From Desulfatiglandales bacterium (lineage in GTDB: Bacteria > Desulfobacterota > DSM-4660 > Desulfatiglandales > Desulfatiglandaceae), in contig OY759599.1 in the NCBI GenBank assembly GCA_963662465.1, positions 960,001 to 1,024,000 of the forward strand: a DNA stretch of 64,000 nucleotides. The letters run 5' to 3'. The notes under the pieces were generated by a model. The model had not been told where the DNA came from, did no database searches, and worked only from the letters and a program-made list of their open reading frames with translations. Below, piece by piece: positions 32,743 to 57,264 of the stretch (the first letter of the stretch is position 1; each line of letters opens with the position of its first letter). The position numbers and the translations under genes are program-made.

Positions 32743-32846
32743 CAAGGATGGATTAAATCCGGCCATCGGGGAAGCCCACGGGCGATATACGAGAATGATC
32801 AATTTTAGGGAAGGTTGGCGCGGTCATTTAAGGTGTCCCCGGATTT
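32743..32846 (+). pseudogene. Second RAYT remnant
   Basis: Near-identical to 19838-19925, then joined to the same taaggtgtccccggattt terminus seen at 20121. Confidence 0.85.
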
Positions 32847-33200
32847 GCGAACACTGAATGATATGAAAGAACACTATTCCTGCTTGAAGATTGCTGTTGT
32901 TATTTTGTTGATCATGTCAACCGCGGCTTTGGCACGCAGCAATGCTCCTTTAAATCAGGACACCCAACTCGAAAGCAGCACGGGACAATATCTTGAGCAG
33001 ATAGAAGATCGTCTTGAAAAAAGTTTAAAAAACAACGAACCGGAATTTCCTGCCTCCCTCCGTAATGTCCTTATCAAATTTTCCATGCTTGGACCAATGG
33101 CAAACATAAGCAGCCGGACACTTGAAAAATTAGGTGGCAGCAAGACGGCCCGTACCTGTATATTCTTTGTCATGCCGGTAATCCGCTGGATGAGCGAACC

Positions 33201-33280
33201 GGCCATAAGCTTTTCCGGCATTTCTTCAGGCGCCACAGGACATAGTCCACTAGACCGGTTGCCGCAGCCCGGTTGGGCAT
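33201..33280 (-). pseudogene. Short frameshifted CheB/CheBR-like remnant
   Basis: MPNRAAATGLVDYVL / APEEMPEKLM resembles the end of the CheB methylesterase domain. Confidence 0.5.
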
Positions 33281-33531
33281 GCTTCGGAAAGTGAATCAGT
33301 GGATCAAATATGTTTGCGAAAACGGTTTCGTGTTTATGAAAAGCGCCCTTCGATCGGGCAAAAATTTATCTTGAACAGCAGGGTATAAATAGTCACGGAA
33401 AACTGTTTAACTATTATAAAGAATGCACGAAGTGTCAACAGCTATTTATGGAATTCGTCAGTTCGCCTGAAAATCCATTTTGGAAGTGTCGCTGCTTTTT
33501 GAGGTTAAACTACAAATGTGATTTCGTCAGT

Positions 33532-33672
33532 GGACCTCGGGGAGGTTCGTCAGATTATAAAGTGACTCAAAGCCTTTTAATTCTTTCCCAAAAATGGTGC
33601 AGCTTTCTATGCTTCTCTATGCGAATTTTGAGTGGCATATAAACTCATAATCTGAGGTACGTCCCCATTCTC
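33532..33672 (+). repeat. ~140-bp non-coding repeat, copy 1
   Basis: Near-identical to 43083-43222; internal IRs tcagattat/ataatctga and actcaaa/tttgagt; ends gtacgtccccattctc. Confidence 0.9.
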
Positions 33673-34690
33673 AATAGCGATCTTTCTGTCTATGATTGTT
33701 GGGTTCCGCTTTTATGACCTGGCGCGAGGATTTGTGGTTCACATACAGACCGCCGGAGTTTCAAAACACCGGAAATGCCGACTCAAGAATAACCGATCGA
33801 ATCCTACACCCAAGTCCTGTGATTGTTTGACAGACTTCCAAAGCGAAAAAAATTGGTTCAGAAGACCATTTACGAGATAATACCTTTCTACCATCCAACC
33901 CCTACATATTGTGGTTGTCAAATTTCTGATTTCATTGCAGATATAGCAGTAATCAGAAGTTCTTCATTGATAATAAATAGTTAATGGATTAAGAACTTTT
34001 TCTTCGTTGAAATGGTACAAATAGAATTAGTGCCTTATCACCAGGTCTTTTGTCACAAAAAACAAGAAAATTTTCACACTATGGAAATGCAATCGACCCC
34101 AATAGCTAAAAGGTCAAAGCTGAAAGCTCAAAGGAAAATGCAATCTGCCTCGCCTTTCACCTTTCAGCTTCGAGTTAAAGTGAGACTTTGTGTTGCGTGC
34201 AGTGCTCGCCTTAGCTTTTAAGAATGCTCTCTCTTTTCTGGTTTGATCGAAAAATCTGGCTCAAAAGCAGTAGAAACGAAAGAACACATTTTGAACATCC
34301 GTTGTTGACATGCACGCCGGGGAAATATTAGTCTCCTTAATAAAAGGACCAAGATTTACACGTCGCACTGACGTTGATATTTTTATTGAAAACTCGGCTT
34401 CTAAACAGGAAGCAGACCATCGTCTATGGTTTCTTTATGAATCACTTTTCGGGTTATTTAGAGACGCTCAATCGCTTAGAACTCTTTGCCGGAATTTCTG
34501 ATTTAATGAAGGATGCCGAATTATGTTGGCATTGATAACCGCAATTTTTTAAATCTTAACAAGAGGACCCCATAATCTTCCGTTATCCTCTGTTTTTCAA
34601 CCGTAAACCGGCAACCGTAAACTGTGAACGGTTACTTAATTTTATTATCACTTCAACTGAATTTTCACTTAATGGAAGGAGGAGCCAACC

Positions 34691-35794
34691 ATGCTGCAGT
34701 TACTCGTCCATCGAATTGCCCGGGGTTTATCAATGGGGACGTCGGCCGTGGCAGTCTTTCTTGCTGCTGCCCAACTGTTTGCCGCGAGTGCTTCGGCGGA
34801 TCCGTCGACATCCATCGACATCGACGGAATTGTTCCGACCGAAAAAGGATTCGTGGTAACGGGGAAAGTCACTTGCAAAGGGCCGGTGTCTGGTGGCGGT
34901 GAAAGCCACTCTTATCGGGTTTATGCGGTCGCGGATATCAAAGACAGTAAGGTTGCCAGGTTCCCCAAACTTGCCGAGTACTTGGTCATCAGACCGCCAG
35001 CCGGTGCGGAAACCGATGTAGGGCCTGGCAGCGGCCTCGGCAATTTGATGACGATTGAAGAGCGAGACGGCATTGACTGCACGTCGTTAAGAACCGGCCC
35101 GCAGCCCGGAACCGACAAATTCGAGTTGATTATTCCCATCAAGCACGGTGGCAAGATGGTGCGCATACGTGCGTACCTCAACTACCAGTACAACAATGTC
35201 GGCACGCCGTGGCCGATGATTAAATTTTACCACGACATAGGCTACGAAGGGGTGCTGCCATCTGATCAACCCATGAATGAAGGAAAGAACTGGGATCTGA
35301 ATAGTGATTTGCGTTATGGTATCCATCAGATTACACAATATATAAGGAAACGGGCAAAAGACATCCGTGCAACTGACAAGAATATGTCAGATCTGTTAAA
35401 TCTTTATGCTGAAAGAATTTCTAATGCTAAAATTTCTTACAAATCTAAACCCTTGTTTGGCAAAAATGGACAAATGGCAAATTATTGGTGTGGCACTATC
35501 ACTCTTTTTAATGGCATATACCAATACAATGATGTATTTGGCCCAACAAATAAATTATATTCTATTAAAGCAGGCAAGTATAACTTGAGTATAATGGCAA
35601 GTTTGCTCATACATGAAGTAGCCCATTCATATGGGGCGAATGAATGGCAGGCCCATCGACTTCAGCAACTGACTTTTGATGCCTTAGGTGTCGATAAAAA
35701 TAATCCTGTTCGTGATCCTGTTAAGAAATATTTCAAGGCTTATCCTTCGTGGTGGAGCCTTGGCTCACAGTACCTTTATTGGTTACGGATGTAA
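34691..35794 (+). CDS. Secreted protein with C-terminal HEXXH (zincin-like) domain
   Basis: Signal peptide (ASASA), SLLIHEVAHSYGANE. Confidence 0.65.
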   Translation: MLQLLVHRIARGLSMGTSAVAVFLAAAQLFAASASADPSTSIDIDGIVPTEKGFVVTGKVTCKGPVSGGGESHSYRVYAVADIKDSKVARFPKLAEYLVIRPPAGAETDVGPGSGLGNLMTIEERDGIDCTSLRTGPQPGTDKFELIIPIKHGGKMVRIRAYLNYQYNNVGTPWPMIKFYHDIGYEGVLPSDQPMNEGKNWDLNSDLRYGIHQITQYIRKRAKDIRATDKNMSDLLNLYAERISNAKISYKSKPLFGKNGQMANYWCGTITLFNGIYQYNDVFGPTNKLYSIKAGKYNLSIMASLLIHEVAHSYGANEWQAHRLQQLTFDALGVDKNNPVRDPVKKYFKAYPSWWSLGSQYLYWLRM

Positions 35795-35809
35795 CGGGAG
35801 GAATAAATA

Positions 35810-37291
35810 ATGATAATAAAATACAAAACAAATCGAATGATACAGGGTTTGAGTGCCTGCATTGTATTCTTTTTTTTGCCTATTTCGTCTTTGTTTGCAC
35901 TTGAAAATCCGGAAATTGAGAAAAAGATAGACAATTTCGAAAAAGGATTAGCAACAAAAAACATTAATCTTGTTATGCAATCATTCAAGAAAAACGACGT
36001 TTGGCAAGGCGTCATGACATATCCTTACGTCAAGGAGAATGCTGCTGAACTCTTTAACTACTACAAATCCATCAATCTGCAGAGAATCAGACTGGAAATT
36101 TTAGCTCTGGATCAGCGCATTGCCAGTTCTGCAGACTACCTACTGCGGGCAACAACAATGCAGGGCAAGCAGGTCGAGCTGAAAGTCTCTTTCGTCTTTC
36201 TCTGGGAGAAAGGAGAGAACGAATGGCAGATCACAGCAATAAATCCCTTGATCATGGTCCCGGTAGATGGTTCGGTAGCAGATGATCTGAAAAAGATCGA
36301 TCCTGGCAATGTAAGCCAAGACTCGCAGGTTGGCCACTTGTCTCCAGTTGCCGACTCCTATGTCTATGCCTATGCCTACCGGAACTGGAACAAGGCCAAC
36401 TGGGGGAAATCCGGTAGCCTTGGGGCTGGATGGCATCCCACCGGCGGGGAGAAAAGGATATACTTGAAGTTTGACCTTTCCGGTATTGACGTCAAAAAAG
36501 TGGGAAAGGCAACACTGAAACTCTTTCATTATCATACCGGGGGCAAAAATTCTTTATTTCTGGGGGTTCACGCAGTCACCAGCGCATGGCGGGAAGGCGG
36601 GAACACCTACCATTCGGGTCAGACTGAAAAATTTGCTGCAGCTGGTGAAATTAGCTGGGTTAACCAGCCTGCCTTTAATTTTTCCCCTTTGGCAAGCTTC
36701 AAGCCCGGCTCAAGAGAAGGTAAATATGCTGAAGCGGACATTACGCCACTGGTTGTGGCATGGCTTACAGGGAAACCCAATTACGGGTTAATGATCAAAC
36801 CGATGGGAATTATGTCAGGAAGAGCACCGGAATCTTCCTACGCGTTCTACTCCAGGGAATATCAGGATAAGAACAGACGACCGGTTCTCTGTATTGGATC
36901 TGCGGTGTCGGGATCGCTTGTTCAAGATCCCAAAGGCGAAAAAACAACTGAGCTGGAAGCCAAAATGAGGGATCTGGGAGACCGAATCGGGGCTTACAAG
37001 AATTGTATCTCCCTAGAACGACCCGGGGAAATCATGCTCTACCTGGATCCGCTGACATCTGAATGTATGCCCATTAACATTGCTTCATTCAAGGCCTACC
37101 TGACAGAAAAGGGGTTGACCACCTCAGAAATAAAAGACCGAATGGCGATTTGGGATGAAAAATCTGCTGATGTCAAGAAGAAACTGTTGGAGGATATTTC
37201 ACGAATGGAATCCGAACTCCGCCAGCTTCACAAGAATTCCGGAACGGAAGGAGCCAGTGAAAAGAGGGTAAGCCTCCCACTCAACCCTTGA
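35810..37291 (+). CDS. Secreted protein with NTF2/SnoaL-like and DNRLRE-like domains
   Basis: Signal peptide; WEKGENEWQI; LSPVADSYV..NWG..YLKFDLS..ATLKL..DITPLVVAW..NYGLMI..FYSRE. Confidence 0.7.
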   Translation: MIIKYKTNRMIQGLSACIVFFFLPISSLFALENPEIEKKIDNFEKGLATKNINLVMQSFKKNDVWQGVMTYPYVKENAAELFNYYKSINLQRIRLEILALDQRIASSADYLLRATTMQGKQVELKVSFVFLWEKGENEWQITAINPLIMVPVDGSVADDLKKIDPGNVSQDSQVGHLSPVADSYVYAYAYRNWNKANWGKSGSLGAGWHPTGGEKRIYLKFDLSGIDVKKVGKATLKLFHYHTGGKNSLFLGVHAVTSAWREGGNTYHSGQTEKFAAAGEISWVNQPAFNFSPLASFKPGSREGKYAEADITPLVVAWLTGKPNYGLMIKPMGIMSGRAPESSYAFYSREYQDKNRRPVLCIGSAVSGSLVQDPKGEKTTELEAKMRDLGDRIGAYKNCISLERPGEIMLYLDPLTSECMPINIASFKAYLTEKGLTTSEIKDRMAIWDEKSADVKKKLLEDISRMESELRQLHKNSGTEGASEKRVSLPLNP

Positions 37292-43222: not shown

Positions 43223-43652
43223 TTAAAAAGCGGCCTTTTTGGAGGAAACCCGATATTGGTTCGGCTGGTGACAGGCGATCAGGAATCTTTCACGCCCTAT
43301 GACGCCTACAAATCCGTCACCGGCAAACCGCCGCCGGGACGACCGGAAGAGGTACTGGATGAACCTTCCGTAGCCTATTCTCTTGTCTGCGCTCTGGATA
43401 CGCCGGATCGTCGCTGCGGCCTGATTCTGATGTCGCGTTATCACAATCCGATTATACTGCGTATGCCATTGGCCCTGGCCATTGCTCACGGACTTATTCC
43501 CGCCAATCCCGTTGATTGAAACTTCATCCAATCTTTCCTTACCTGTTGGTTCCGATAGTTGTGCCTGGCTTGCTTTTTGTGGTAGGCTTTTAAAAATGTC
43601 GAATTCAACAGGTTGTGATTGTTTATATTTTTTAGTAATCAAAGGGGGTTGC

Positions 43653-46600
43653 ATGAGGTTATTTGTGGAATTGCACAAATTCGCGAACTCTGCCCTTTTC
43701 ACCGGCGGGTTGATTGTGATGTTGATATTGCTGGGTTCCGCCTCAAGCGGGATGTGTAACACTGTTGACGGTCTCAACAACCAGCCCGACAAGACCCCCA
43801 AAGTGGGAGACCCGGTGTCCGCGGCCACCGGAGAGGAGTTGATGACCCTTCCCCTGTTTCATCTGCCGGGCCCAATGCCCATTGATCTCACGCTTTACTA
43901 CATGTCCCAGTCCAGCTCGCCGTCAGAGTTCGGCAATCAGTTTTTTCTGAATGTTCCGTATATGTGGCGTATCGGGGACGACATCAGCGTCACCTTTGTA
44001 AATGGCATGGACGAGGTGGAGTTTCACAAAAACGCTGAAAATGACTGGGAAATGATCGGTCACTCCTCCTGGCCCTATGAACTCAAGGCTGCGGGGGATC
44101 ACTTTTTTTTGAAAAATTCCGCGGACAATACGGTTTTCTATTTTGAGAAGTTCAACGATTTTCTTTGGTTGTGCCGAAAAAAAATGGATCGCGCCGGTAA
44201 CTCGCTGACCTACACCTACAGTGCGTTTGCCGGCAAGTCCTTTCCCGGGCTGGTCTCCATTGAGAGTTCCGCGGGCCGGAAGATTGACTTCACCATACAG
44301 GAAGTGAATGGCAAATGGGTGGTGACCGCCATTGAAACGGACACCACGCCTGCGCAGTCCCGGACATTTTCCTACACCGGCGGATATCTCACATCCATGG
44401 TAAACCCCGATGGCAAAGCTGCCACTTTTGCCTATGACGGCGACAACCGCCTCACCGCCATGACCACTCCCCGGGGAACGGTTCCCTACACTTCAGAGTA
44501 CGACAGCGTGGAGGTTCACGGCACGGACAGCAGCATGTTCATTCCCGTGGTGGTAAAACAGACCGACGCCATGGGAAATATCACGCAGCTCGCATACGAT
44601 TTTCCCGACAACAAGGTGATTGAGACCCGGCCCGACGGCCGGCAGAATACCTTCATCACCGCGGGATATCAGGGGGAGTACGGTCGCACCGGCGGCGCGG
44701 CGCTGCAGGTGAGCCCCTCCGGTCTCGGTACTCTGAATTTTCAACAAAACGGCGAGGGAAACATCACACAGGCCCAAACCCAGGGCGGTGCAACTCTCTC
44801 CTTTGACTATGATGCCACCTCCGGCCGTCTGTCATCCTATGCAGTGGGAAACGATCGCATTTCCATGGACCATACCCCCGTTGCCCAAACCTTTTACGGG
44901 CTGAACAGCGACACCGCAGCATTCATTTTCGCCGATGAAACCTCCCGCCTCTATTTTCCCAGCAACGGAACCGAAACCCTGACCTATGACGATAAGGGGA
45001 ACCTTCTCACCTTCCAGGACATGGGCGGCAACATTTGGAGTTATACCCGAAACAGTCGGGGTCAGGCCACTCAGATCGAAAATCCCCTGGGAGCGGTCGA
45101 AACATTCTCCTACAACACGGACCAGCTCCTTGCGACCCACTCATCTTCGGTCAGCGGGACCACTACGATGGTCTATGATGCCTACGGCCGCCTCACCACC
45201 ACCACTGATGGGATGGGAAATACCCGAACCCTGACATATGATGATATGGGCCGCCTTACCCAGGAGGTCAACGAGTTGGGGCAGGTGACCGGGATGGCCT
45301 ATGACCCGAACGGCAACCTTGACTCCACCACCGATCCCCAGGGAAACGTGACCGAGTTCACCTATGACCCCATGGACCGCTTGGTGCGGACACAGGCCGC
45401 CAACGGTGAAACGGCATCCATTACCTACGATTCCATGGGGCAGGTCGCCTCCACCACCGGCCCGTCCGGCATCTCCACCCAATACCAGTACACGGCCGGC
45501 GGCTTGGTGAGCCGTATGATAAAAGGAAATTATATCTGGGAAGGCGCTTATGACACGGACGGTCTTTTGGCCACGGATCAGGAAACCGGTGGCGTGGCTT
45601 ATACCTATGCCCATGATGCGGCGGGTCGGGTTACTCGAATCCAGGACGTGGAAGGCCGGGTCTGGCAATACACTTATGACGCGTTCGGGAAACTTCTTAC
45701 CAGCATCAACCCCGCGGGACAGACCATCCAATACGCGTATGACGGCATGGGCAGGCTGATGGAAGCTACCCTGCCCGGAAACCGGAAAGGAACTTACGAA
45801 TATAATGGGATCGGGAACCTCACCCAGATCACGGGGCCACAGGGCGGGAAATGGCAATTCCAGTACACCACGGCAGGTCAACTGACACAGCAGACCGACC
45901 CTCTGGGGGGCACTATCAGCTACACGTACGACACATTGGGTCGAATGGCCACCCGGACCGACGCCATGGGAACGATGCAGACGTTTGAGCATGACGCGCT
46001 TGACCGGGTCACCCGAATAAACTCCGGCAGCGATATTTTGACCTACGCGTTTGACCCTAATGGCCGGATGACCCAGACCCGGGGCCTTTCCCTCACGTAT
46101 GATGCCTTGAGCCGGGTCACCCGGTGCATGAGCGGAAACACTACCTATGATCTCACCTGGAACACCAAAGGCCAGCTCGTCACCCTGACCCAAACGCCGG
46201 GAAATCTCACCATTGCCTATACATACGACGCGATCACCGGCGATATTGTGTCGGTATCGGATTCAAAGGGATTGGGATCCGCATCCTTCTCGTATGATGA
46301 CGCGGGCCGGGTGACGGGCATCACCCGAAAAAACGGGGTTTCCACTACTTTTACCGTTGATGCGGCCACAAGCCGGATCACCCACGTCACCGACGGCGAT
46401 TTCACGGATGTAACCTACACCCTCGATACCCTTGGACGGATTACCGCCTTGGACGGCGCACTGCCCCTGGAACCCGGCGCTTACCTATCAGCCCGGGACG
46501 AAACACACACCTTCAACGCCATGAATCAGGTAACGGATGCCGGCTACACCTACGACGCAGCAGGGCGTCTCCTCGCCACACCAGATATGACGCTTTCCTG

Positions 46601-47819
46601 GAACGGATTTTCCCAGCTCACGGCCATCAACGACGCCGTATATACCTATGATGGGTTGAATCGAATCCTGACCGCCGCGTTAAACGGGACTACCACCGGC
46701 TACAGCTATTGCGGCACCGTGGACAGCCAGACACCCCTGCGTATTCACAATGACGCCATTGAATGGACCCAGGTAGTGGCGCCCGGATGGGGGCTGGTTT
46801 ACTCCATCCGCACCACGCCGGATGGAGAGGCGGTCGTCTATTACCACACGGACTGCCGGGGTTCGGTCATTGCCGTGACCGATGCTGCAGGGGCGGTCAT
46901 CCATCGGTTCGGATATACCCCGTATGGCCGACTGCTGGCCGACGAAGGCGTCGCTCAAAGAGCTGACGCCGGTTCGCCCCGTCCGCCCTTTTTGTACCTC
47001 GGCCACTATGGTTGCCACACCCTGCCCGGAACGGAAGCGCTATATCGGCACGGCGCAAGGGCTTATTTTGCGGCGGTGGGGCAGTTTGTTTCACCTGAAA
47101 CAGAATGGCCGGACCTTGGAAATCCGGCACGATTGAATGTGTACCATTATGCGACATCGGATCCTATTAATTATGTCGATTTTAACGGATTCGCAATGGA
47201 TATCAATAAATTGAGAGAAGCATATGCTTCGTTGGAAAAACAATTTAAATTAACACATAAACAAAACTATAAAGAACCGGAAACGGATCCGAATTTTAAA
47301 TCGTTCCCTGATTACCGTCGCATACCGGTGAGGCAGTCATCCGAATTAAACGCTGCTCTAGAAGAAAATAAAGGTGAAATATGGGTGGATTTTTATCTTG
47401 CGTATAACAGTCCATTTCGAGATGTATTGAAAGGATTGGGTAAAATCAATCGGCAGGGACGGGCGCGAATCATCCCGGAGGAAAATTTTGGTAAAGCCTT
47501 GGAAATTGCAGAAAAACTGATCATTTACATGGGCTATGACACCCGATATGCTAATGGCAATTTCCTTAAACTCGGGCAGGATATCGTCGAATGGATATGG
47601 TGGGAGCGAGAGAGATTGAAGAAAGTAAGGCGAAAAATAGCGTTAACTCGAGGGCTCCTTTTTGGAGAGGGTGAACTGAGTCCGGGCGCCGGAATGGTGG
47701 AGGAAGCTATACAGGCCCTTGGCCTCAAGTTCATAGAACCAAATAGAAAGAAAGAAATAATGTTTTGTCCGCCGTATCCTGCATTAGATAAAGCAATCAG
47801 TTTGAGTATCGCGAAGTAA
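43653..47819 (+). CDS. RHS/YD-repeat protein with variable C-terminal domain
   Basis: VGDPVSAATGE, many YD repeats, YYHTDCRGSV, YHYATSDPINYVDFNG followed by an AT-rich ~210-aa tail; start uncertain. Confidence 0.9.
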   Translation: MRLFVELHKFANSALFTGGLIVMLILLGSASSGMCNTVDGLNNQPDKTPKVGDPVSAATGEELMTLPLFHLPGPMPIDLTLYYMSQSSSPSEFGNQFFLNVPYMWRIGDDISVTFVNGMDEVEFHKNAENDWEMIGHSSWPYELKAAGDHFFLKNSADNTVFYFEKFNDFLWLCRKKMDRAGNSLTYTYSAFAGKSFPGLVSIESSAGRKIDFTIQEVNGKWVVTAIETDTTPAQSRTFSYTGGYLTSMVNPDGKAATFAYDGDNRLTAMTTPRGTVPYTSEYDSVEVHGTDSSMFIPVVVKQTDAMGNITQLAYDFPDNKVIETRPDGRQNTFITAGYQGEYGRTGGAALQVSPSGLGTLNFQQNGEGNITQAQTQGGATLSFDYDATSGRLSSYAVGNDRISMDHTPVAQTFYGLNSDTAAFIFADETSRLYFPSNGTETLTYDDKGNLLTFQDMGGNIWSYTRNSRGQATQIENPLGAVETFSYNTDQLLATHSSSVSGTTTMVYDAYGRLTTTTDGMGNTRTLTYDDMGRLTQEVNELGQVTGMAYDPNGNLDSTTDPQGNVTEFTYDPMDRLVRTQAANGETASITYDSMGQVASTTGPSGISTQYQYTAGGLVSRMIKGNYIWEGAYDTDGLLATDQETGGVAYTYAHDAAGRVTRIQDVEGRVWQYTYDAFGKLLTSINPAGQTIQYAYDGMGRLMEATLPGNRKGTYEYNGIGNLTQITGPQGGKWQFQYTTAGQLTQQTDPLGGTISYTYDTLGRMATRTDAMGTMQTFEHDALDRVTRINSGSDILTYAFDPNGRMTQTRGLSLTYDALSRVTRCMSGNTTYDLTWNTKGQLVTLTQTPGNLTIAYTYDAITGDIVSVSDSKGLGSASFSYDDAGRVTGITRKNGVSTTFTVDAATSRITHVTDGDFTDVTYTLDTLGRITALDGALPLEPGAYLSARDETHTFNAMNQVTDAGYTYDAAGRLLATPDMTLSWNGFSQLTAINDAVYTYDGLNRILTAALNGTTTGYSYCGTVDSQTPLRIHNDAIEWTQVVAPGWGLVYSIRTTPDGEAVVYYHTDCRGSVIAVTDAAGAVIHRFGYTPYGRLLADEGVAQRADAGSPRPPFLYLGHYGCHTLPGTEALYRHGARAYFAAVGQFVSPETEWPDLGNPARLNVYHYATSDPINYVDFNGFAMDINKLREAYASLEKQFKLTHKQNYKEPETDPNFKSFPDYRRIPVRQSSELNAALEENKGEIWVDFYLAYNSPFRDVLKGLGKINRQGRARIIPEENFGKALEIAEKLIIYMGYDTRYANGNFLKLGQDIVEWIWWERERLKKVRRKIALTRGLLFGEGELSPGAGMVEEAIQALGLKFIEPNRKKEIMFCPPYPALDKAISLSIAK

Positions 47820-47844
47820 TTTTTTATTATTAAGGAATAAAATT

Positions 47845-48534
47845 ATGATCAAATATCCTCATGTCTGCTGTACAATATTGCTTTTTGCGCTTTTTTTTGC
47901 GGTTCCGGCCCAGGGTGCGAACATCACCTACACCTATGACAATGCCGGACAGCTGACCAAAGCCGATTACGGCGGTGGCAAAAATATTGCCTATGCCTAT
48001 GACGCCGGCGGGAATATGCTGCGGCGGCAAAGCATTGGAGATGCCGCGACCTACACCCTTACGGTAAACAGCGGTACGGGCGGCGGTGAGTACGAAGCGG
48101 GAACGGTTGTGGCCATCTCCGCCAACGCTCCGGCCGCGGGCAAGGTGTTTGACCAATGGACAGGCGACACAGGCCCCGTGGCCGATGTGAACAGCGCCAC
48201 GACCAACGTGACCATGCCGGCGGCGAATGTCGCTGTAACCGCTGCCTACGGGGATCAACCCATCGTATATGTGAGCGAAACAGGCTGTGGGAACCTCAAG
48301 CCCTGTTACGCCACCCTTAACGAGGCTGTGATGGACGTGGAAAGCGACACCCTGGTCAAAGTTGCGGGAGACCTTTCCACCCAGACAAACGTGGATGCAG
48401 CCAAAACCCTGTATATCGAGTTTGGCTATGACGCCAACTTCACCGGAAACGATGGCGGCGTGACCCGGATACAGGGGTCTTTCACCGCCAAGGACAAGAC
48501 CATTATTCGTTCCGGGACCATTCGGGTCAGATAG
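47845..48534 (+). CDS. Secreted short YD-repeat plus B-repeat protein
   Basis: Signal peptide (AQG), YTYDNAGQLT..YAYDAGGNM, YTLTVNSG..GKVFDQWTG. Confidence 0.8.
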   Translation: MIKYPHVCCTILLFALFFAVPAQGANITYTYDNAGQLTKADYGGGKNIAYAYDAGGNMLRRQSIGDAATYTLTVNSGTGGGEYEAGTVVAISANAPAAGKVFDQWTGDTGPVADVNSATTNVTMPAANVAVTAAYGDQPIVYVSETGCGNLKPCYATLNEAVMDVESDTLVKVAGDLSTQTNVDAAKTLYIEFGYDANFTGNDGGVTRIQGSFTAKDKTIIRSGTIRVR

Positions 48535-49072: not shown

Positions 49073-51048
49073 TTGGAGAAGCGATTGGCGAGAATATTAA
49101 TTTTACTGAATTGTGCTATACTTCTGTTGGTCTTACTTTCGCCGGCCGTTGCCGAAAGTGAAGCTGTTCCCAGAGTCCTGATTCTTCATTCCTACCATTC
49201 TCCCTATGTTTGGACTGACCGTATTATGGACGGCATGATGAGCATTCTACGGCTGGCCGATGATAAAATCGACATTTATACGGAATATCTGGATGCGCAG
49301 AGAATCCCAAAACAAGCATCCTGGCCGGCTTTTGAGCACTGCCTGAAGGTCAAGTACGCAGGTGAAAAATTTGATGTCATTCTGGCCTCAGACGATGATA
49401 TGCTCGATTTTTTGATTCCCCGGTACGAGGCCTTGTTTCCCGACACCCCTGTTGTATTTTGCGGCATCAACAACCTGGATGAAAGCAGATTTGAAAAGCA
49501 CCGCGCATTCAAGGGGGTCAATCAGGAAATTGATGCCAAAGGAACCATTCTGCTCGCGCTGAAACTGCTGCCGGACACTGAAAAAATTCTGGTCATCTCG
49601 GATCGAACCTCCGGCGGCATCAAAACCACCCAAAAGTTCAAGAACGATATCCAGGAAATGGGCACTTTGAAGCAGAAGTTTCAACTGATGGACGATTATA
49701 CGCTGCCGGCACTTAAGAAACGCCTTCAAGCGCTTGGGCCCAACGACCTTGTTCTGGTGCTCAGAATTCAGAAAATCAAAGGAATCGACGAGCGATCCCC
49801 TGCCCGATTCGCGAAAATCGTAACGGACACGGCGCCGGTTCCGGCCTTCAAGCTCTGGGACATTGGTGAAAGTGATTTTGTGGGCGGTGTCTTGGTGTCA
49901 CCCTTTGAACAGGGCAAAACCGCGGCGGAAATCGCCTTGAGGATCCTTAAAGGGGAAGGTTTCAGAAATATTCCACGGGTGACCGGAAGCCCCAATGTTT
50001 CCATGCTCAATTATGCCGTCATGAAAAAGTTCAATATCAATCTAAAAAACATTCCCGACGGCACCACGATAACCGATCGCCCGATTTCGATTCTGGAAGA
50101 ATACTCGGGCCTGGCCCGTCTTGTTTTGTTCATTTTCGTGGTAATGGCTTTGGTTGTTCTTTCGCTCGTTATCATCCTCTTCCAAAGGAGAAAAAGCGAG
50201 AAACTGATTCTAGAGAGCAAAAGAAAGTTGTTTGAAAGTGAAAAAAATATCGCCTTATTGTTGAAAATCAAAACGAACTGGTGGTTAAATTCGACAATAA
50301 TAAGAGAATTCTGTATGTGAGCCCCACTTACTGCAAGACATTTGGGATCAATGAGGACGAAATACTTGGAAAAAGTTTTTTCCCATTAGTCCACAGAGAC
50401 GATCTTGAGGCCGTTAAGAAATCCATCGATTCTTTGACCAAACCACCTTATAGAACCTACCATGAAGAGCGTGCTAAAACTGTCAACGGTTAGCGCTGGT
50501 TCGCTTGGTCTTTGAAAGCTTTGATGGATGAAAATGGCGATATCAATGAAATTATTTCGGTTGGAAGGGACATCACCGAGCAGAAAAATCGGGAAGAAGC
50601 CCTGATCAAGAGCGAATCTTCTCTTCGGGAAGGTCAGGAAATTGCCAAGTTCGGCAACTGGGAAATGGACGTCTCATCAAAGTGGATCGCCTGGTCGGAT
50701 GAAAATTTTCGGATCTTTGGGATAGACCGACCACACGAGGGAGGCCTGTCATTCGATGATTTTATGAAATTCGTGCACCCGGATGACCGCGCTTTAATTT
50801 TTGAACTCTGGGAGAGAGACTTGCCGCCAAGGGACGTTCGAAATTAGAGTACAGGGCGATTCGTCCGAATGGTGAGATCCGCTGGATCTCTGGGCGGGGT
50901 AAAACATACTTTGACGAAAACGGAACCCCTGTAAGGATGTTTGGGGTCTTACAGGATGTCACCAAACGCAAACAAGCAGAAAACGATTTGAAGATAAGCG
51001 AAAACAGACTGAAAAATATCATTGAAAGTACCACGAATCTTTTCTATT
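49073..51048 (+). pseudogene. Hybrid sensor histidine kinase, 5' part (periplasmic binding domain, PAS domains)
   Basis: RVLILHSYH..WTD, TM helix, PAS/PAC motifs; frameshifts near 50245 and 50820, TAG at 50491; interrupted by a mobile element. Confidence 0.85.
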
Positions 51049-51298
51049 CTTCAACGCTAATCAAAACTGAACCAAGTTTGCTAATGGAAATTGAACCATT
51101 GGCTGTCACCGCCGGTGAGTACGGCCCTCAGGTATAGCGGACGATGAGGGATCCATAAGTGGCGGCAAAGGAGTCGTTGATGTAGATTTACTTTTCAATA
51201 AATTTTTATAAAATCTATTTTCTTTGGATTTGGTTTTCTTCTTCCAAGACAGAGGCTTGGTTAAGTGGAAATGCGATTTACTTTGTAGAATGGATGGT

Positions 51299-51334
51299 GA
51301 AGGCCCGAAGTAGCCGCTTCGGGCCTTCTTTTTT
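51299..51334 (+). terminator. Intrinsic terminator in the element leader
   Basis: 12-bp perfect stem gaaggcccgaag/cttcgggccttc, 6-nt loop, T6 tail. Confidence 0.7.
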
Positions 51335-51410
51335 GACCACCGGATAGAGCCGGAAGCCACACACACGCCAATTTTATATAAGTGTGTTTCCGGCCAATTG
51401 CAAGGCTGGA

Positions 51411-51827
51411 ATGATGGGAGATGTCCTTTTAAGAGTGGTTCAATGCCGATGTTGTGGTTGCTTTTTTCACGTCTGTCGGTCGTGTTGGCGTGGCCAGGCC
51501 TATTGTGGGGAACGATGTCGCAGGATACGCCAAAGACAGCTGCACCGGAAAGCTCAGGGGAAATACCGCAATTCGAAAAAAGGGAAAGAGCGCCGTCGTT
51601 TGTACGAAAAAACAAAAAAATCCAAAAAAAATGGACTGAACCCTGGTGATGATAGTTCAACACCTCAAAAAGACTGTGATATTGAACCCAAAAAGCGGTC
51701 GGGGAACCGACCCAGCTGTCTTTTTTGCGGGTCGATCGGGGTTGTTGTGGACCATTTTCCTCGCCGTGCTTATGCAGGGAGGGTTTTTTCAGATGTAACA
51801 GGCTTTGAGAAAACCCCATATCCATGA
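51411..51827 (+). CDS. Basic Cys-rich (Zn-binding) hypothetical protein
   Basis: CRCC..CRSC..YCGERC and CLFC; first gene of a tightly coupled run. Confidence 0.65.
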   Translation: MMGDVLLRVVQCRCCGCFFHVCRSCWRGQAYCGERCRRIRQRQLHRKAQGKYRNSKKGKERRRLYEKTKKSKKNGLNPGDDSSTPQKDCDIEPKKRSGNRPSCLFCGSIGVVVDHFPRRAYAGRVFSDVTGFEKTPYP

Positions 51828-51839
51828 CAGGAGAAAAAA

Positions 51840-52259
51840 ATGATCAAAAAAAGAGTCCTTTTTCCCGAAAGAGTGCGTGTCATCAATGGAAGCTTCGGCT
51901 TTCTGGAGCATCGTTTTTTGAGAAACGGCTTTTGGGAGAGCCTGAATCATCATGAGCTGCTGCTCTACATTTTTCTGGTGTTGGTATCTGACAAAAACGG
52001 GCTCTCTTATTATGGTTACGACAGAATCTGCCGGATTTTAAAGGTGCATTTGGATCAATATATCGATGCCCGCGATGGCTTGTTGGACAAGGATCTGATT
52101 GGGTTTGATGGCCGTCTGTTTCAGGTTCTTTCGCTTCCCAGACGTCCTGTGATTGTGAAACAGGTAAAGGAGATCCGGCAAGGAAATTGGGTCAGTCTTG
52201 GAGAAACCATAGAGGAAATCTTTCGGGAGACTGGGTATGGAATCCATCCGAACCGTTGA
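51840..52259 (+). CDS. Winged-helix-like hypothetical protein
   Basis: LLLYIFLVLVSDKNGLSYYGYDRICRIL resembles replication-initiator N-terminal wHTH; AGGAG RBS. Confidence 0.65.
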   Translation: MIKKRVLFPERVRVINGSFGFLEHRFLRNGFWESLNHHELLLYIFLVLVSDKNGLSYYGYDRICRILKVHLDQYIDARDGLLDKDLIGFDGRLFQVLSLPRRPVIVKQVKEIRQGNWVSLGETIEEIFRETGYGIHPNR

Positions 52260-53121
52260 TATTCATTTGCTGGAGTTGCGTTACGCTCATTGCCGGATAA
52301 TGAATCACCAGGCTTTAAAGCGATTGAGGGATTCCATCGAAACTTACGGGCAGATCGTTCCGGCCCTGGCTATTGAAGAAAAAGACAAACTGATTCTGAT
52401 TGATGGCTACCTGCGTGTTCGAGCGCTTTGTGCTTGTGGAAAGGACCGGATATGTGTCCAATTCTCAAAAGAAAACGAACAAAATGCCATGTTTTCGCTT
52501 TTAACCAAGGCCAATGAACGGCAATGGGAAGTCATTGAGCAGTCTGTTTTACTTCAGGAATTACATCGGCGTTTTGGGTGCAGCCTCTCCCATATTGCAA
52601 CCCGAATAGGGCGCGACAAGAGTTTTGTAAAACGGCGGCTGGACCTGGTTGAAGCCCTGCCGGAAAATATTTTGAGAACCGTGATTGCAGGCTCACTTTC
52701 AACCTGGGCTGCCAGCCGTGTCATGGCGCCGTTGGCGCGCGCCAACGGTGAAGACGCACAAAAACTGTTGGCCCACCTGGAAAAAGAACCTCTATCCACA
52801 AGGGAACTGGCCCGTTTCTACGCACATTACCAGAAAAGCAACCGGTCTGTTCGAGACCACATGCTGGAAAATCCATCCCTTTTCATAAAAGTTCTCGAAC
52901 AAAGAACCCAGTCTAAACAAGCCAAAGAAGTTCATGATGGACCGGAAGGCAAATGGTTCAAGGATATTGAAATGGTATATGCGGTTCTCAAACGTCTGGT
53001 GAAAACCGTTTCGCATGTCCATTACCCAAAAAGCGATCAGTTGAAGAAACAAACGCTCAAAACCTGGGTGAAAAAGATAGAAAAACAAGCACTGGAACTC
53101 AAGAAAGCGACCCAATTATGA
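52237..53121 (+). CDS. ParB/RepB/Spo0J family protein
   Basis: LRDSIETYGQIVP, LIDGYLRVRA, HTH SLSHIATRIGRDKSFVKRRL. Confidence 0.8.
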   Translation: MESIRTVDIHLLELRYAHCRIMNHQALKRLRDSIETYGQIVPALAIEEKDKLILIDGYLRVRALCACGKDRICVQFSKENEQNAMFSLLTKANERQWEVIEQSVLLQELHRRFGCSLSHIATRIGRDKSFVKRRLDLVEALPENILRTVIAGSLSTWAASRVMAPLARANGEDAQKLLAHLEKEPLSTRELARFYAHYQKSNRSVRDHMLENPSLFIKVLEQRTQSKQAKEVHDGPEGKWFKDIEMVYAVLKRLVKTVSHVHYPKSDQLKKQTLKTWVKKIEKQALELKKATQL

Positions 53122-54500
53122 TCCGACAATCCAAAAAAGATGCCATTGTGGAATTGAAAAAAACCGGCATGAGTTTGCGCGACATCGCCAAAACCCTGAA
53201 GGCCGGTCGCAATACCGTCACGAAGGTTTTAGATGATCATGACGAAGAGGCGGTACCCCAAAGGAACTCCCGGTATGAAGAACATGTCCCGTTGATCCGC
53301 GAGCTTTTCAAGGAATGTAAAGGAAATGCCGTGCGAGTAGCCGAGGAACTGGAAAGCCGCCAACAGATCAAAATCCCTTATCAGAGTCTGACCTGGATTA
53401 TGAGAAAGTACGAGATCCGGGAACGTAAAAAAAGACGGGCGGGCCAATACCATTTTAAACCCGGTCAGGAGATGCAGCATGATACGTCACCCCATCTGGT
53501 TGTCATTAATGGGAAAAAAATGTCGACCCAGTGCGCGTCCCTGACCCTGGCCTTTTGCCGAAGGATTTTTATTCAGTATTACCCCTGTTTTACCCGGTTT
53601 GAGTGCAAGGTTTTCCTAAAAAAAGCATTCGAGTTTATGGACGGGGTGTGTTCCCGGTGCATGGTTGACAACACCAATGTTATTGTGGCCGGCGGCACCG
53701 GGCCTGATGCATTGATTGCGCCTGAAATGAAATACTTCGGCGATATGTATGGAACCCGGTTTGAGGCCCATGCTGTAGGAGACGCCAATCGAAGTGCCCG
53801 TGTGGAAAGGCCTTTTCATTTTGTGGAAAACAATTTTCTTCCCGGTAGAACATTTGTTAGCTGGCAGGATTTGAACCGGCAGGCAATCGACTGGTGCCGG
53901 AATACAAGCGATAAAAAGTTTAAACGGGCTTTAGGGATGACGCCGGATGAGGCCTATGTCATTGAAAAGCCATATCTCATTGATTTACCGGCATACCAGC
54001 CGCCAGTCTATGTGGCAGAACACAGGGTAGCCGATGTTCAGGGATATGTGCACTTGGACACCAACCGCTATTCAGTCCCTGAAGCGCTGATTGGGAACTC
54101 CCTGGAAGTACAGAAACATTGGCTCAAGGTCATCGTTTACGACAAAAACACAAAAGTGGCGGAACATGACCGCATACTGGATAAACGCAACACCCGAACA
54201 ACCCTGCCCGGTCACCATGTTCCCATTCGAAGAAAAAAAGATCCCCGAATCCCTTCAAAAGAAGAACAGCTGTTGACGGGAGAGGATGCCATCCTGGATG
54301 AGTATGTGGCTGAACTGAAGAAAAGAAGTCACGGTCGCGGTGTGGTCAAGTTACGTCGGTTGCTTCATCTGAAACGCACTTATCCCGGGGAACCTTTTTT
54401 GAAAGCCATAACACAGGCGCTTAAATATGGACTTTTTGATTTGTCGCGTCTGGAAAACATTATTCTCGATTATATCGCGGGAGACTTTTTTGATCTATGA
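53118..54500 (+). CDS. istA: IS21-family transposase
   Basis: N-terminal HTH, PGQEMQHD, MVDN, ARVERPFHFVENNF, DTNRYSVP. Confidence 0.85.
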   Translation: MIRQSKKDAIVELKKTGMSLRDIAKTLKAGRNTVTKVLDDHDEEAVPQRNSRYEEHVPLIRELFKECKGNAVRVAEELESRQQIKIPYQSLTWIMRKYEIRERKKRRAGQYHFKPGQEMQHDTSPHLVVINGKKMSTQCASLTLAFCRRIFIQYYPCFTRFECKVFLKKAFEFMDGVCSRCMVDNTNVIVAGGTGPDALIAPEMKYFGDMYGTRFEAHAVGDANRSARVERPFHFVENNFLPGRTFVSWQDLNRQAIDWCRNTSDKKFKRALGMTPDEAYVIEKPYLIDLPAYQPPVYVAEHRVADVQGYVHLDTNRYSVPEALIGNSLEVQKHWLKVIVYDKNTKVAEHDRILDKRNTRTTLPGHHVPIRRKKDPRIPSKEEQLLTGEDAILDEYVAELKKRSHGRGVVKLRRLLHLKRTYPGEPFLKAITQALKYGLFDLSRLENIILDYIAGDFFDL

Positions 54501-55216
54501 AAAAGAAAATTGAACAGTTACTCATTGATTTGAAGTTTAAAGGCATGCTGAAGGCTCTCGAAGAACAGTTGGCTTCGGCTGAAAAGAACGGTTTTTCCAT
54601 TCACGAGGTCATCTACAATCTCCTGGCTGAGGAATTACGTTTCCGGCAGGAGCGCAGCATGATCTATCGGGTCCAGATTGCAAAGCTTCCATGGGAATGG
54701 ACCCTCAACTCCTTTCCGTTTGATCTTCAGCCGGGAATACAGAAGAGCCGGATCATGACGTTGTCCGGCCTTGACTTTATCAGCCGAAGAGAAAACATCG
54801 TGTTCCATGGAAAAACCGGCGTCGGCAAAACGGGATTGGCCGTGGGGATCCTTCGTCAAGCCATTATTGCCGGGTACCGGGGGCGTTTTTATAATGTTCA
54901 GGATTTGCTGGATCAGCTCTATGCGTCTTTGGCAGATCGGTCCACCCCGAAACTCCTCAATGCCCTTTGCAGATATGACCTGCTTCTGCTCGATGAACTG
55001 GGATACCTGACCCTCAAAAAAGAGCAGATGAACGCCTTTTTTAAACTCATGAAAGATCGCTATGAAGCCGGTCGGTCCACAATTATTACGACCAATCTTC
55101 AACCTGAACAATGGTATTCGCTGCTTGAACCAAAGGACATGGTCGATGCCTTGCTGGATCGTCTCAACCATCGCTGCATCAACATTCATATTGATGGTCC
55201 TTCCCTCAGAAAATGA
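54497..55216 (+). CDS. istB: IS21-family helper ATPase
   Basis: GKTGVGKT, LLLLDELGY, STIITTN, ALLDRL, GPSLR. Confidence 0.92.
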   Translation: MKKKIEQLLIDLKFKGMLKALEEQLASAEKNGFSIHEVIYNLLAEELRFRQERSMIYRVQIAKLPWEWTLNSFPFDLQPGIQKSRIMTLSGLDFISRRENIVFHGKTGVGKTGLAVGILRQAIIAGYRGRFYNVQDLLDQLYASLADRSTPKLLNALCRYDLLLLDELGYLTLKKEQMNAFFKLMKDRYEAGRSTIITTNLQPEQWYSLLEPKDMVDALLDRLNHRCINIHIDGPSLRK

Positions 55217-55314
55217 GATGTTCGCCAAAGGGCCGGTTTTGAGGTCTGAATATCACCGGTCTGTTTGAATCTCGTTACACGAATATCAGAAATTACCTTG
55301 TCTTGGAGCTTGAA

Positions 55315-55512
55315 ATGAGAGGTGGAAAACGGGTAGGCGCCGGCCGAAGAAAGAAACCGGAACATTTGAGACGTGAACTGCTCACCATTCGTCTCCCCAA
55401 ATGGATGATTCTACAGCTGAAAAAAAACGGGGAAATTGGATATTTGATTGAGGATCAATTGGCGAAGGGAGGCCTCCTGAATTTACCGGACGACTATGAC
55501 ATAGACAAATAG
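55315..55512 (+). CDS. Small putative DNA-binding protein
   Basis: RGGKRVGAGR followed by an RHH-like LTIRLPKW; GGAG RBS. Confidence 0.55.
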   Translation: MRGGKRVGAGRRKKPEHLRRELLTIRLPKWMILQLKKNGEIGYLIEDQLAKGGLLNLPDDYDIDK

Positions 55513-55773
55513 TTCCTCAATAAGCATTGCCCTTAACCGAAAAATCTAATCCCCTCTTCTCTGCCATCACCATATTGATGGTATCCTCATCACTGATTCT
55601 TCAACCAGAACGCTACGTGTCTCACCAGCATTTTTAAAATACCATCTGATATACTCTTTCATGCAACCTCTAACAAATTTACAAGAAAACCCTTCTAAAA
55701 GGAAAAGACCAGTGCGCAATATCTGGTTCCGTTTGGAGTAGCAAAACTGGTTCCATTTTGGTTAGCGCCCAAG

Positions 55774-57264
55774 TTTCTATTCCCATACGGCAGACTACGA
55801 GGTAACGTTCATCAGTCCGCAGGTTCGAGAATATCTGGGCTATGAACCGGAAGAAGTAATGCGGCGCTGGACTGAGTTTATTACCGATAATCCCATTAAC
55901 AAAAAGGGAATGGAATTTACCGAAAAAGCGATTCGAACCGGGAAACGTCAGCCCACCTATGAACTTGAGATGCGCCGTAAAGACGGCAGGAAAATCATTG
56001 TCGAAGTGCGGGAAGCCCCGGTCGTTAAGGATGGTACGGTGACAGGAGTCGTCGGCTTGCTTGTGGACGTCACGCATGAACTCAATCTTGAGGCCCAGCT
56101 CATTCAGGCCCAAAAGATGGAGTCTGTGGGTCGATTGGCGGGAGGGGTTGCCCATGATTACAAAATGCGCTTTCCGTGATCATCGGTTTCTGTCAACTGG
56201 CCATCGAGAATGTGGACCCCGGCGACCCGCTTCGTGGAGATCTCGATGAAATCTACGGGGCAGCAAAGCGTGCGGCGGATATTACCCGGCAACTGCTGGC
56301 CTTTGCCCGAAAACAGACCATCTCCCCTAAAGTTCTTGATTTAAACGAGAATGTGGAAGGGATGCTTAAAATGCCGAACCGCCTGATAGGCGAGAACATT
56401 AATCTTGTCTGGGCGCCGGGGAAAAATCTGTATCCCATCAAAATGGATCTATCTCAGATCGATCAGATCCTGGCCAACCTCTGCGTCAACGCCCGTGACG
56501 CGATTCCCGGTGTCGGAAAGGTCATCATCGAAACAAAAAACAGCGTCTTTGATAAGGCCTACTGCGCTGATCACCACGGGTTTGTTCCCGGCGAATTTGT
56601 TCTGCTGGCGGTTAGCGACAATAGCAGCGGCATGGAAAAAGAAGTTCTGGATAACATTTTTGAGCCGTTTTTTACCACCAAGGGCATCGATGAGGGAACC
56701 GGTCTGGGGTTGGCCACGGTCTACGGCATTGTCAAACAGAATGAAGGATTCATTAATGTTTACAGTGAATCCGGGGCGGGAACGACCTTCAAAATCTTTT
56801 TACCCCGGCATAAGGGCAAAACGGTTCAAGAGGATCAGGAAAGCGTTCCGGAAATCCCTCAAAGCAAGGGAGAGACCGTTCTTCTTATAGAGGACGATCT
56901 TTCGCTTCTGGAACTTGCCGGGAAAACGCTTGATGGACTGGGCTATAAAGTTCTGAAAGCAGGCACACCTAAAGAGGCCATGCGTCTGGTTAAGGATTAT
57001 ACCGGAGAGATAAACCTTCTGCTGACAGATGTCATTATGCCCGAAATGAACGGTCGTGAATTGTGGGAAAAGTTGGAAGCGCTCTATCCCCAACTCAAAT
57101 GTGTTTTTATGTCCGGCTATACAGCCAATGTCATCGCCCATCACGGTGTCCTGGATGAAGGCGTACACTTTATCCAGAAACCGTTTTCCAAAAGCGATTT
57201 GGCAATAACCGTCAGGAAAGCGCTGGACGAGGTGAAAAAACCAACTTCCGGAACGCCACACTGA
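55774..57264 (+). pseudogene. Hybrid sensor histidine kinase, 3' part (PAS, HisKA, HATPase, receiver)
   Basis: QAQKMESVGRLAGGVAHDY then frameshift near 56162; NLCVNARDA, FEPFFTTK, GTGLGL, LLTDVIMP. Confidence 0.88.

Follow-up and report, generated by a model that had tools for sequence, protein, structure and literature searches.

Why should a transposon related to IS21 carry a gene for a ParB-like protein, and what might that protein do for it? This question is raised by a 4,725-bp element in a 64,000-nucleotide stretch of DNA from a Desulfatiglandales bacterium (GenBank assembly GCA_963662465.1, contig OY759599.1, positions 960,001 to 1,024,000; this whole stretch is the window), where it occupies positions 51049-55773 and is framed by an 8-bp target site duplication (TSD), TTTCTATT. 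IS21 is a minimal model of ATPase-assisted transposition, as are Mu and Tn7, and correct end pairing and self-avoidance are still an open question. The element works like IS21 yet fails two of its hallmarks, the TG..CA termini and the two-gene layout, and it is best filed as an IS21 variant with a candidate ParB-parS-like control module. The best clue to the role of ParB is a perfect 16-bp palindrome inside parB, absent from an earlier note on this DNA, and the arrangement as a whole suggests an undescribed way of controlling transposition. Judging from sequence, we consider it an evenly poised possibility that ParB loads at this parS-like palindrome and either pairs or licenses the two ends of a single copy.

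A dyad scan of the element returned a single perfect 16-mer, which is present in all 25 full-span copies found in this genome. Of 67 full-length homologues, 61 were aligned with the window parB after removal of six near-duplicates; the palindrome is perfect in 45 of these 62 sequences and keeps at least seven of its eight pairs in 58. Its mean pairing is 7.65, whereas redrawing of synonymous codons gives 5.21 and the next best 16-mer position 3.98. It is conserved at the DNA level: the codons of Ala167 and Arg168 are fixed in 100% and 98% of the sequences, those of other conserved residues outside the site in 30-71%, symmetric double changes have occurred in about four lineages, and Leu166 and Asn170 are altered in step. 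Here a DNA site would be steering the amino-acid sequence of the gene that contains it. The parB of a sister clade carries a perfect 16-mer of different sequence at equivalent codons in 10/10 genes, the chance being 0.4-2% for each of the nine tested, which are non-independent; host chromosomal parB has no such palindrome. Consensus parS and NBS, in the available part of the source, are likewise 16 bp long with a central CG (PMC7383237). Conceivably, the site is real but is read by the Zn finger, by IstA or IstB or by a host factor, or acts as an RNA hairpin, and ParB has its role elsewhere. Binding of ParB to the site is a prediction, and in two of the mini-elements described below the dyad is lengthened to 40 bp, as for a hairpin or cruciform. 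The site sequence, however, differs between the two ParB clades while its symmetry stays perfect, and a lineage with an ATT variant of the site also has changed recognition-helix residues 129 and 133, a single event and hence weak. We consider a different reader quite improbable. Covariation of site and HTH was set aside as evidence, being confined to that one lineage.

The predicted structure of ParB (pLDDT 94.7) comprises a ParB/Srx nucleotide-binding fold, an HTH and a helical C-terminus, and it resembles those of ParB, Noc and KorB; the match to Spo0J and Noc spans the entire protein (E 2e-17; Foldseek E 6e-11). G57 and R60 of the GxxR box are found in 62/62 homologues, R20, S33, G38, Q39 and P42 are also kept, and the invariant R161 aligns with the DNA-contacting R204 of Caulobacter ParB. 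The GxxR box, the DNA-contacting Arg and a 16-bp palindrome with a central CG are shared with the ParB-parS, Noc-NBS and KorB clamps. Unlike ParB-parS and Noc-NBS, the element has its site within its own parB gene on a transposon, in a different sequence, and its ParB has replaced catalytic Glu and Asn residues. Moreover, no parA was found among the element's open reading frames (ORFs), and no ParA-binding peptide (LG-R/K-GL) in its ParB, which begins at the fold, whereas host chromosomal ParB has the peptide.

These absences bear on the earlier note's idea that the extra genes maintain an excised circle, for which a ParB-site complex would retain or segregate a circular intermediate via host ParA or SMC. 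A copy-out/paste-in route has been proposed for IS21 in the portion of text available (PMC11208146), the site resembles parS, and the top fold matches of the winged-helix (wHTH) protein include replication-initiator and DnaB/DnaD domains. The latter are generic, however: the best comparison (4PTA, Z 7.9, root-mean-square deviation 4.5 Å, 93 aligned) is equalled by CRP, DnaB and MarR winged helices and none reaches 8, so that structure match does not tell a Rep initiator from a generic winged helix. No end-to-end joint is present in four assembled runs (X1, X3, X4, X7) or in the genome, contigs being prone to drop rare forms, and the depth in run X1 (1116-1143 over the element, 33-43 over its flanks) fits about 26 chromosomal copies. 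With no joint and a depth near chromosomal copy number, nothing points to amplification of a circle, although circles may exist as rare forms, and we regard circle maintenance as improbable. Tandem or abutted element ends are also lacking in this genome. One NaphS2 copy (L058:5397-6440) contains its right-end segment three times in tandem, at intervals of about 520 bp, and two of these segments include a duplicate of the istB tail.

Is parB a stable part of the element? As the earlier note had claimed, six ORFs lie inside the ends and the extra genes move with the element; the Zn-finger and wHTH genes are 12 nt apart, wHTH and parB overlap by 23 nt, and parB/istA and istA/istB are joined by ATGA overlaps. 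The gene labels of that note fared unevenly. IstB exceeds the cut-offs of Pfam IstB_IS21 (PF01695; 200.6 bits) and NCBIfam IS21_help_AAA (NF038214; 225 bits), and ParB passes its model. IstA scores 129 bits against the NCBIfam IS21 model, under the cut-off of 160, and matches PDB 8B4H (IS5376 IstA) by profile at E 1.7e-27 with its DDE triad aligned. The wHTH protein falls just under its cut-off, the Zn-finger ORF has no family match above cut-off and no named family or structure, its label coming from invariant cysteines, and the RHH-like ORF, labelled by pattern, has no family or structure match. The gene neighbourhood was followed in metagenomes by an IstA-alignment scan, of which the best 80 of at least 600 matches were kept (44-70% identity). 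In these, parB adjoins istA at every one of the 76 loci where 150 nt or more of sequence upstream of istA was available. Where at least 600 nt were available upstream of parB, the Zn-finger gene was recognised by hidden Markov model (HMM) in 53 of 58 loci, and two of the five negative ones have a Zn-finger-like ORF by eye; the gene comes in two weakly related subtypes (HHalign probability 59%), of which the window has one. It evolves at a ratio of nonsynonymous to synonymous changes (dN/dS) of about 0.2-0.26, and its product is probably, next to ParB, the other accessory factor of the core. The wHTH gene, by contrast, occurs in 8/58 loci and the RHH-like gene in 1/80 by HMM, the latter being absent from the NaphS2 copies (86% IstA identity). 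The wHTH family also heads three-recombinase (RIT-like) elements of this genome (58-63% identity), behind a different upstream gene, and the RHH-like family occurs in three other element types there. By their distribution, the wHTH protein is probably an optional, exchangeable regulator and the RHH-like gene probably a passenger. The earlier note's interpretation was to be refuted if these genes were mostly missing beside close istA homologues; this is not so for parB and the Zn finger, and is so for the wHTH and RHH-like genes.

How might ParB promote transposition? We envision a scenario whereby a ParB dimer would bind the palindrome via its HTH, close as a nucleotide-dependent clamp and spread along the element, and would thereby act as a positive requirement in cis, by which the two ends of a single copy, each bound by IstA, are paired or licensed; IstA would cut at a 3'-G, and IstB would deliver the IstA-bound ends to the target as in IS21. 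Binding, clamping and contact with IstA or IstB are steps that we infer. A positive cis role is favoured over repression or immunity because gene-less elements retain the site. Of 209 genomes of the class, seven contain the 14-mer core of the palindrome (reversed control: 0), and six of these have an IstA match; in the seventh, G046, the core lies in non-parB DNA about 215 bp inside a right end. In this genome (G000), a palindrome at G000:3732981 is located in non-parB DNA 256 bp from an orphan right end (L204, G000:C1:3732400-3733252) for which no matching left end was found; its neighbours are what we take to be a comM/YifB-like fragment and a small HTH-like ORF. The 16-mer has three non-self matches among 401 genomes of the phylum, one in G309 without ends nearby and two in gene-less mini-elements of G299 (257 and 278 bp, each with a 6-bp TSD). 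One of its 22 matches in a viral collection is a gene-less mini-element of 386 bp with a 5-bp TSD; the other 21, with neither parB nor ends, were treated as chance or unrelated, and a further candidate, L235, was dropped because it has no TSD. The interiors of the mini-elements are not derived from parB and have little in common apart from the site and its immediate flanks. Found as they were via the palindrome, the mini-elements indicate that the site can exist apart from a coding sequence and moves along with the ends, and do not imply that it is necessary. Searches by ends alone covered five viral stretches and 8 of the 209 genomes, with 30 loci fetched and 18 end-derived loci examined, and no mini-element without the site was among those five stretches and 18 loci.

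Several observations weigh against a ParB clamp that licenses or pairs the ends. The AGERR motif is changed to DGYxR and ENLQR (Box III) retains only its Arg (R95). The Glu and Asn of these motifs are catalytic in canonical ParB, and with their replacement CTP hydrolysis and sliding may be lost. Box III is frequently divergent in orphan ParBs, and nucleotide preference is not predictable from sequence in the ParB fold, according to the available text of a recent survey (10.1101/2025.10.10.680097). The palindrome has only 6/8 pairs at L232, and L238, a Zn-finger-wHTH-ParB locus with a divergent ParB, has no such palindrome. The three mini-elements were detected through the palindrome, two of the three come from one genome (G299), the end-only searches gave one complete mini-element, identical with L272, and a cut right end in G046 (L280) lacks the site over the available 374 bp. 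Finally, a 260-bp mini-element hardly needs long-range pairing of its ends, so the role may be licensing rather than the bridging of distance.

The mini-elements also bear on two further roles for ParB. It might bind the site, coat the element and keep IstB off element DNA. Such target immunity is common in ATPase-assisted transposons and has been suggested, yet is unresolved, for IS21 in the part of the article at hand (PMC11208146), and among the 25 copies there is no case of one inside another. The copies, however, make up about 1.4% of the genome, so that self-insertion is not expected anyway, and a mini-element of 260-390 bp would gain little from immunity but still retains the site; we hold immunity to be unlikely. 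Alternatively, the site may be an operator from which ParB spreads to silence the operon in a KorB-like manner, limiting transposition as copy number rises. Its position in mid-operon, upstream of istA, would suit this role, as would the long-range action on genes of ParB-fold CTPases such as KorB, described in the accessible part of 10.1101/2025.10.10.680097. Gene-less derivatives with non-parB interiors nevertheless keep the site though nothing is left there to repress, which makes an operator distinctly unlikely.

If ParB acts on the ends, what are these ends? The earlier note saw that they differ from the TG..CA of IS21, and this holds well beyond the window. Non-TG ends are clade-wide: among 80 distinct relative ends, retrieved with the first six positions unscored, 37 start with CT, 38 with CC, two with CG and one each with CA, TT and TG, such that C is the first base in 78/80 and TG the start in 1/80. 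Directly adjoining TSDs confirm the end register in L109, L117, L140, two NaphS2 copies, a plasmid copy and both sister-clade copies of this genome; metagenome loci with both ends have no TSD in 33 of 36 pairs, as expected if assemblies mix the flanks of repeats. In plasmid IS21 loci, all recognisable ends start with TG in the same register (12 of the 13 fetched loci were examined, by eye). In IS5376, the transferred strand ends in CA, and IS21 ends have two internal repeats, L1/L2 and R1/R2, according to the text available (PMC10122671); the C-first ends of the clade imply a transferred strand terminating in G instead. The two ends are also distinct from each other, since TGCGC(A/G) is found at positions 56-61 in 29/42 right ends and 0/38 left ends. 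The right end of L163, the sole relative end starting TGT, offers a natural comparison for end specificity.

The earlier note's proposal of a separate IS21 subgroup agrees with the phylogeny of the transposase. In a quick tree of 46 IstAs, the 30 ParB-linked ones and one contig-cut locus form a single branch (SH-aLRT 100) apart from 12 plasmid IS21s, with the window clade on a long branch separate from IS21. Of 7999 proteins scored in the IstA search, 6367 reached E <=1e-40. IstA matches occur in 18 of the 209 class genomes and in 6 of the 401 sampled from the phylum, and on short contigs of a Planctomycetota and an archaeal metagenome-assembled genome, where mis-binning is possible. The sister clade has a parB-istA-istB layout, often with a CHC2 zinc-finger gene, and its IstA and ParB are about 31% and 22% identical to those of the window element. 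Two of its copies lie in this genome, and a third, on a plasmid of Desulforapulum, has been annotated only gene by gene. A sister-clade (clade-B) copy was the best plasmid IstA match (28% identity), and tblastn returned no plasmid ParB homologue. A phage origin was discarded, as no IstA relative was present among viral contigs.

Like IS21 and IS5376, the element has an IstA with HTH, DDE and beta-barrel domains and IstB directly downstream, two repeats per end, a variable short TSD and weak target specificity, and the ends of IS21 itself match those of the element from position 3 onward. It differs from the IS21 family in its 4.7-kb, six-ORF layout with constant parB and Zn-finger genes, in the CT..AG termini of 25/25 copies, in an IstA under the NCBIfam IS21 cut-off and on its own long branch, and in the internal palindrome and right-end-only TGCGCA motif. 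Taken as a whole, an obligatory ParB-type nucleotide-gated clamp in transposition, loaded at a parS-like site in its own gene and combined, in a widespread lineage, with the replacement of CA by (A/G)G at the cleaved terminus, is a proposal that we advance with somewhat less than even confidence.

Is the element itself well defined and mobile? The boundaries, the 8-bp TSD and the CTT..AAG ends given earlier are borne out by the 25 full-span copies in this genome, 21 of which are uninterrupted (99.5-100% identical) and four interrupted by other insertions; several fragments are present as well. All 25 start CTTCAACGCT and end GCGCCCAAG, which settles the register at the window site and excludes a 9-bp TSD with a shifted left end (TTC start) that would also fit there. 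A TSD is found in 19/25 copies (5 bp in one, 6 bp in one, 7 bp in nine, 8 bp in eight); two of the six without it have swapped flanks, as after recombination between copies. The 35-bp inverted repeats and sub-terminal gaacca/tggttc motifs noted before are likewise real: left and right ends are identical at 27/35 and 37/50 positions (2000 random 35-nt pairs: mean 8.8, maximum 18), and each has two repeats of about 20 bp terminating GAACCA. In the window, the insertion splits a PAS/histidine-kinase-like gene whose reading frame is restored at the empty site. The element is an autonomous, active and recently spread multi-copy transposon related to IS21; its presence in RNA runs was not counted as expression. 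With 25 copies, mostly within open reading frames, it is a major mutagen of its host.

The same copies bear on the idea that the upstream genes are inert cargo or, as the earlier note had suggested, serve target selection. The occurrence of wHTH and RHH-like genes in unrelated elements fits cargo for those two, and Tn7-like elements have accessory target selectors (PMC10293859, as far as its text is available). Such selectors (TniQ/TnsD, TnsF) lie, as the extra genes do here, beside a DDE transposase and an AAA+ ATPase, and some have zinc fingers; the element differs in having no att-site preference, and no homology was found. The available text of that source states that no target selector has been reported for IS21, and does not mention ParB. 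A constant parB that overlaps istA across more than 65% IstA divergence argues against both versions, and a selector is unlikely because there is no target consensus among the genome copies, 16/19 insertions lie in frames of more than 150 codons and 15/25 copies are co-oriented with replication, which is no orientation bias. We consider either version hardly credible. Accordingly, neither a fixed target site nor replication-oriented insertion is seen in the 25 copies.

A loose functional analogy to the palindrome, with no homology, may be drawn with the SGS of phage Mu, an internal cis site important for end synapsis of a DDE/AAA+ transposon in the portion of the source available (PMC3820752). 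The SGS recruits host gyrase over 37 kb, whereas the element is 4.7 kb long and the candidate reader is encoded by it. In the full-text literature, judged by titles and abstract starts, we found no description of a link between ParB and IS21 or between parS and a transposon; this scope comprises neither ISfinder nor most subscription papers, so that a database entry may exist. The strings 'transpos', 'IS21' and 'insertion sequence' do not occur in the available main text of the ParB-fold survey (10.1101/2025.10.10.680097), nor does 'ParB' in the accessible text of the IS21 article (PMC11208146). If a ParB clamp does control the ends, this would be the first transposition system depending on a chromosome-segregation clamp, and ParB-fold clamps would gain a role beyond segregation and gene silencing. 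A DDE transposase with a 3'-G terminus would provide a comparison for the solved IS5376 structures. Since natural mini-elements of 260-390 bp define cis requirements, the question is testable with few constructs, and a natural mini-donor of three parts (left end, site, right end) already exists.

Features of the element and its target site duplication, in window coordinates
Feature	Position	Strand	Remarks
Left TSD copy (TTTCTATT)	51041-51048	+	
Left end, starts CTT	51049-51098	+	repeats 51055-51074, 51079-51098; same register as TGT of IS21
Intrinsic-terminator-like hairpin and T run	51299-51336	+	upstream of operon
Zn-finger-like protein, 137-147 aa	51384/51414-51827	+	Cys-rich, basic; invariant cysteines
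Winged-helix (wHTH) protein, 139 aa	51840-52259	+	HTH_36 23.3, cut-off 25
ParB-like protein, 294 aa	52237-53121	+	passes HTH_ParB
Perfect 16-bp palindrome in parB	52731-52746	.	codons 165-170; candidate parS-like loading site
IstA-type DDE transposase, 460 aa	53118-54500	+	D122, D184, E230 invariant
IstB AAA+ helper ATPase, 239 aa	54497-55216	+	
Small RHH-like ORF	55303/55315-55512	+	likely start 55315; label by pattern alone
TGCGCA motif	55713-55718	.	right-end-specific; just inside second repeat
Right end, terminates AAG	55724-55773	-	repeats 55724-55743, 55748-55767
Right TSD copy (TTTCTATT)	55774-55781	+	

The hairpin ahead of the operon probably stops transcription that enters from the flank, and a similar one lies at the same position in the NaphS2 element; terminator-like sites in the element are no more numerous than in shuffles, so their count is no evidence for it. 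A scan of the element for promoters remained at chance level, and an Rfam scan gave a single match (E 0.23), which was disregarded. The left leader including this hairpin (window 51098-51361) recurs by itself, at 76% identity and with no element ends, at G000:C1:3458440-3458702; it may represent a regulatory RNA or what is left of a gene. Between the terminator and the start of the Zn-finger gene lies an imperfect inverted repeat (window 51347-51394), a possible operator.

Other elements of this genome share parts with the one in the window. The sister-clade copies (L205; G000:C1:8094473-8099500 and 6813482-6822866) have the order parB-istA-istB-CHC2 zinc finger-RHH, CTAT..ATAG ends, TSDs of 7 and 5 bp and their own perfect 16-bp palindrome in parB; one is interrupted by a primase-fusion element. 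A third IS21-like element (L207; G000:C1:5957224-5961575, 6818096-6822447 and 7835547-7839898) encodes an IstA-DnaG-like Toprim fusion and two RHH-like ORFs between CCC..GGG ends with 5-bp TSDs. Together with the window element, this makes three IS21-like families here with C..G ends and accessory genes. The RIT-like tyrosine-recombinase elements (G000:C1:285375-288273 and 3489873-3493976, L206) are headed by a Cys/His protein of about 205 aa and the wHTH family, and a serine-recombinase-like element (G000:C1:6823916-6826372, with six similar places) has the RHH-like gene family of the window element.

In the window itself, the frame of the split sensor-kinase gene (50281-57264) is broken again to the left and to the right of the insertion, by stops at 50493, 50847 and 56179, and from its sequence the gene looks decayed. 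Upstream, positions 43482-48534 hold an RHS/YD-repeat-like ORF of 1445 aa and, after it, one of 229 aa that has a YD-like repeat, both read by eye from the translation. The stretch 31001-36000 has a low GC content, 34-44% compared to about 50%, and is possibly foreign DNA.

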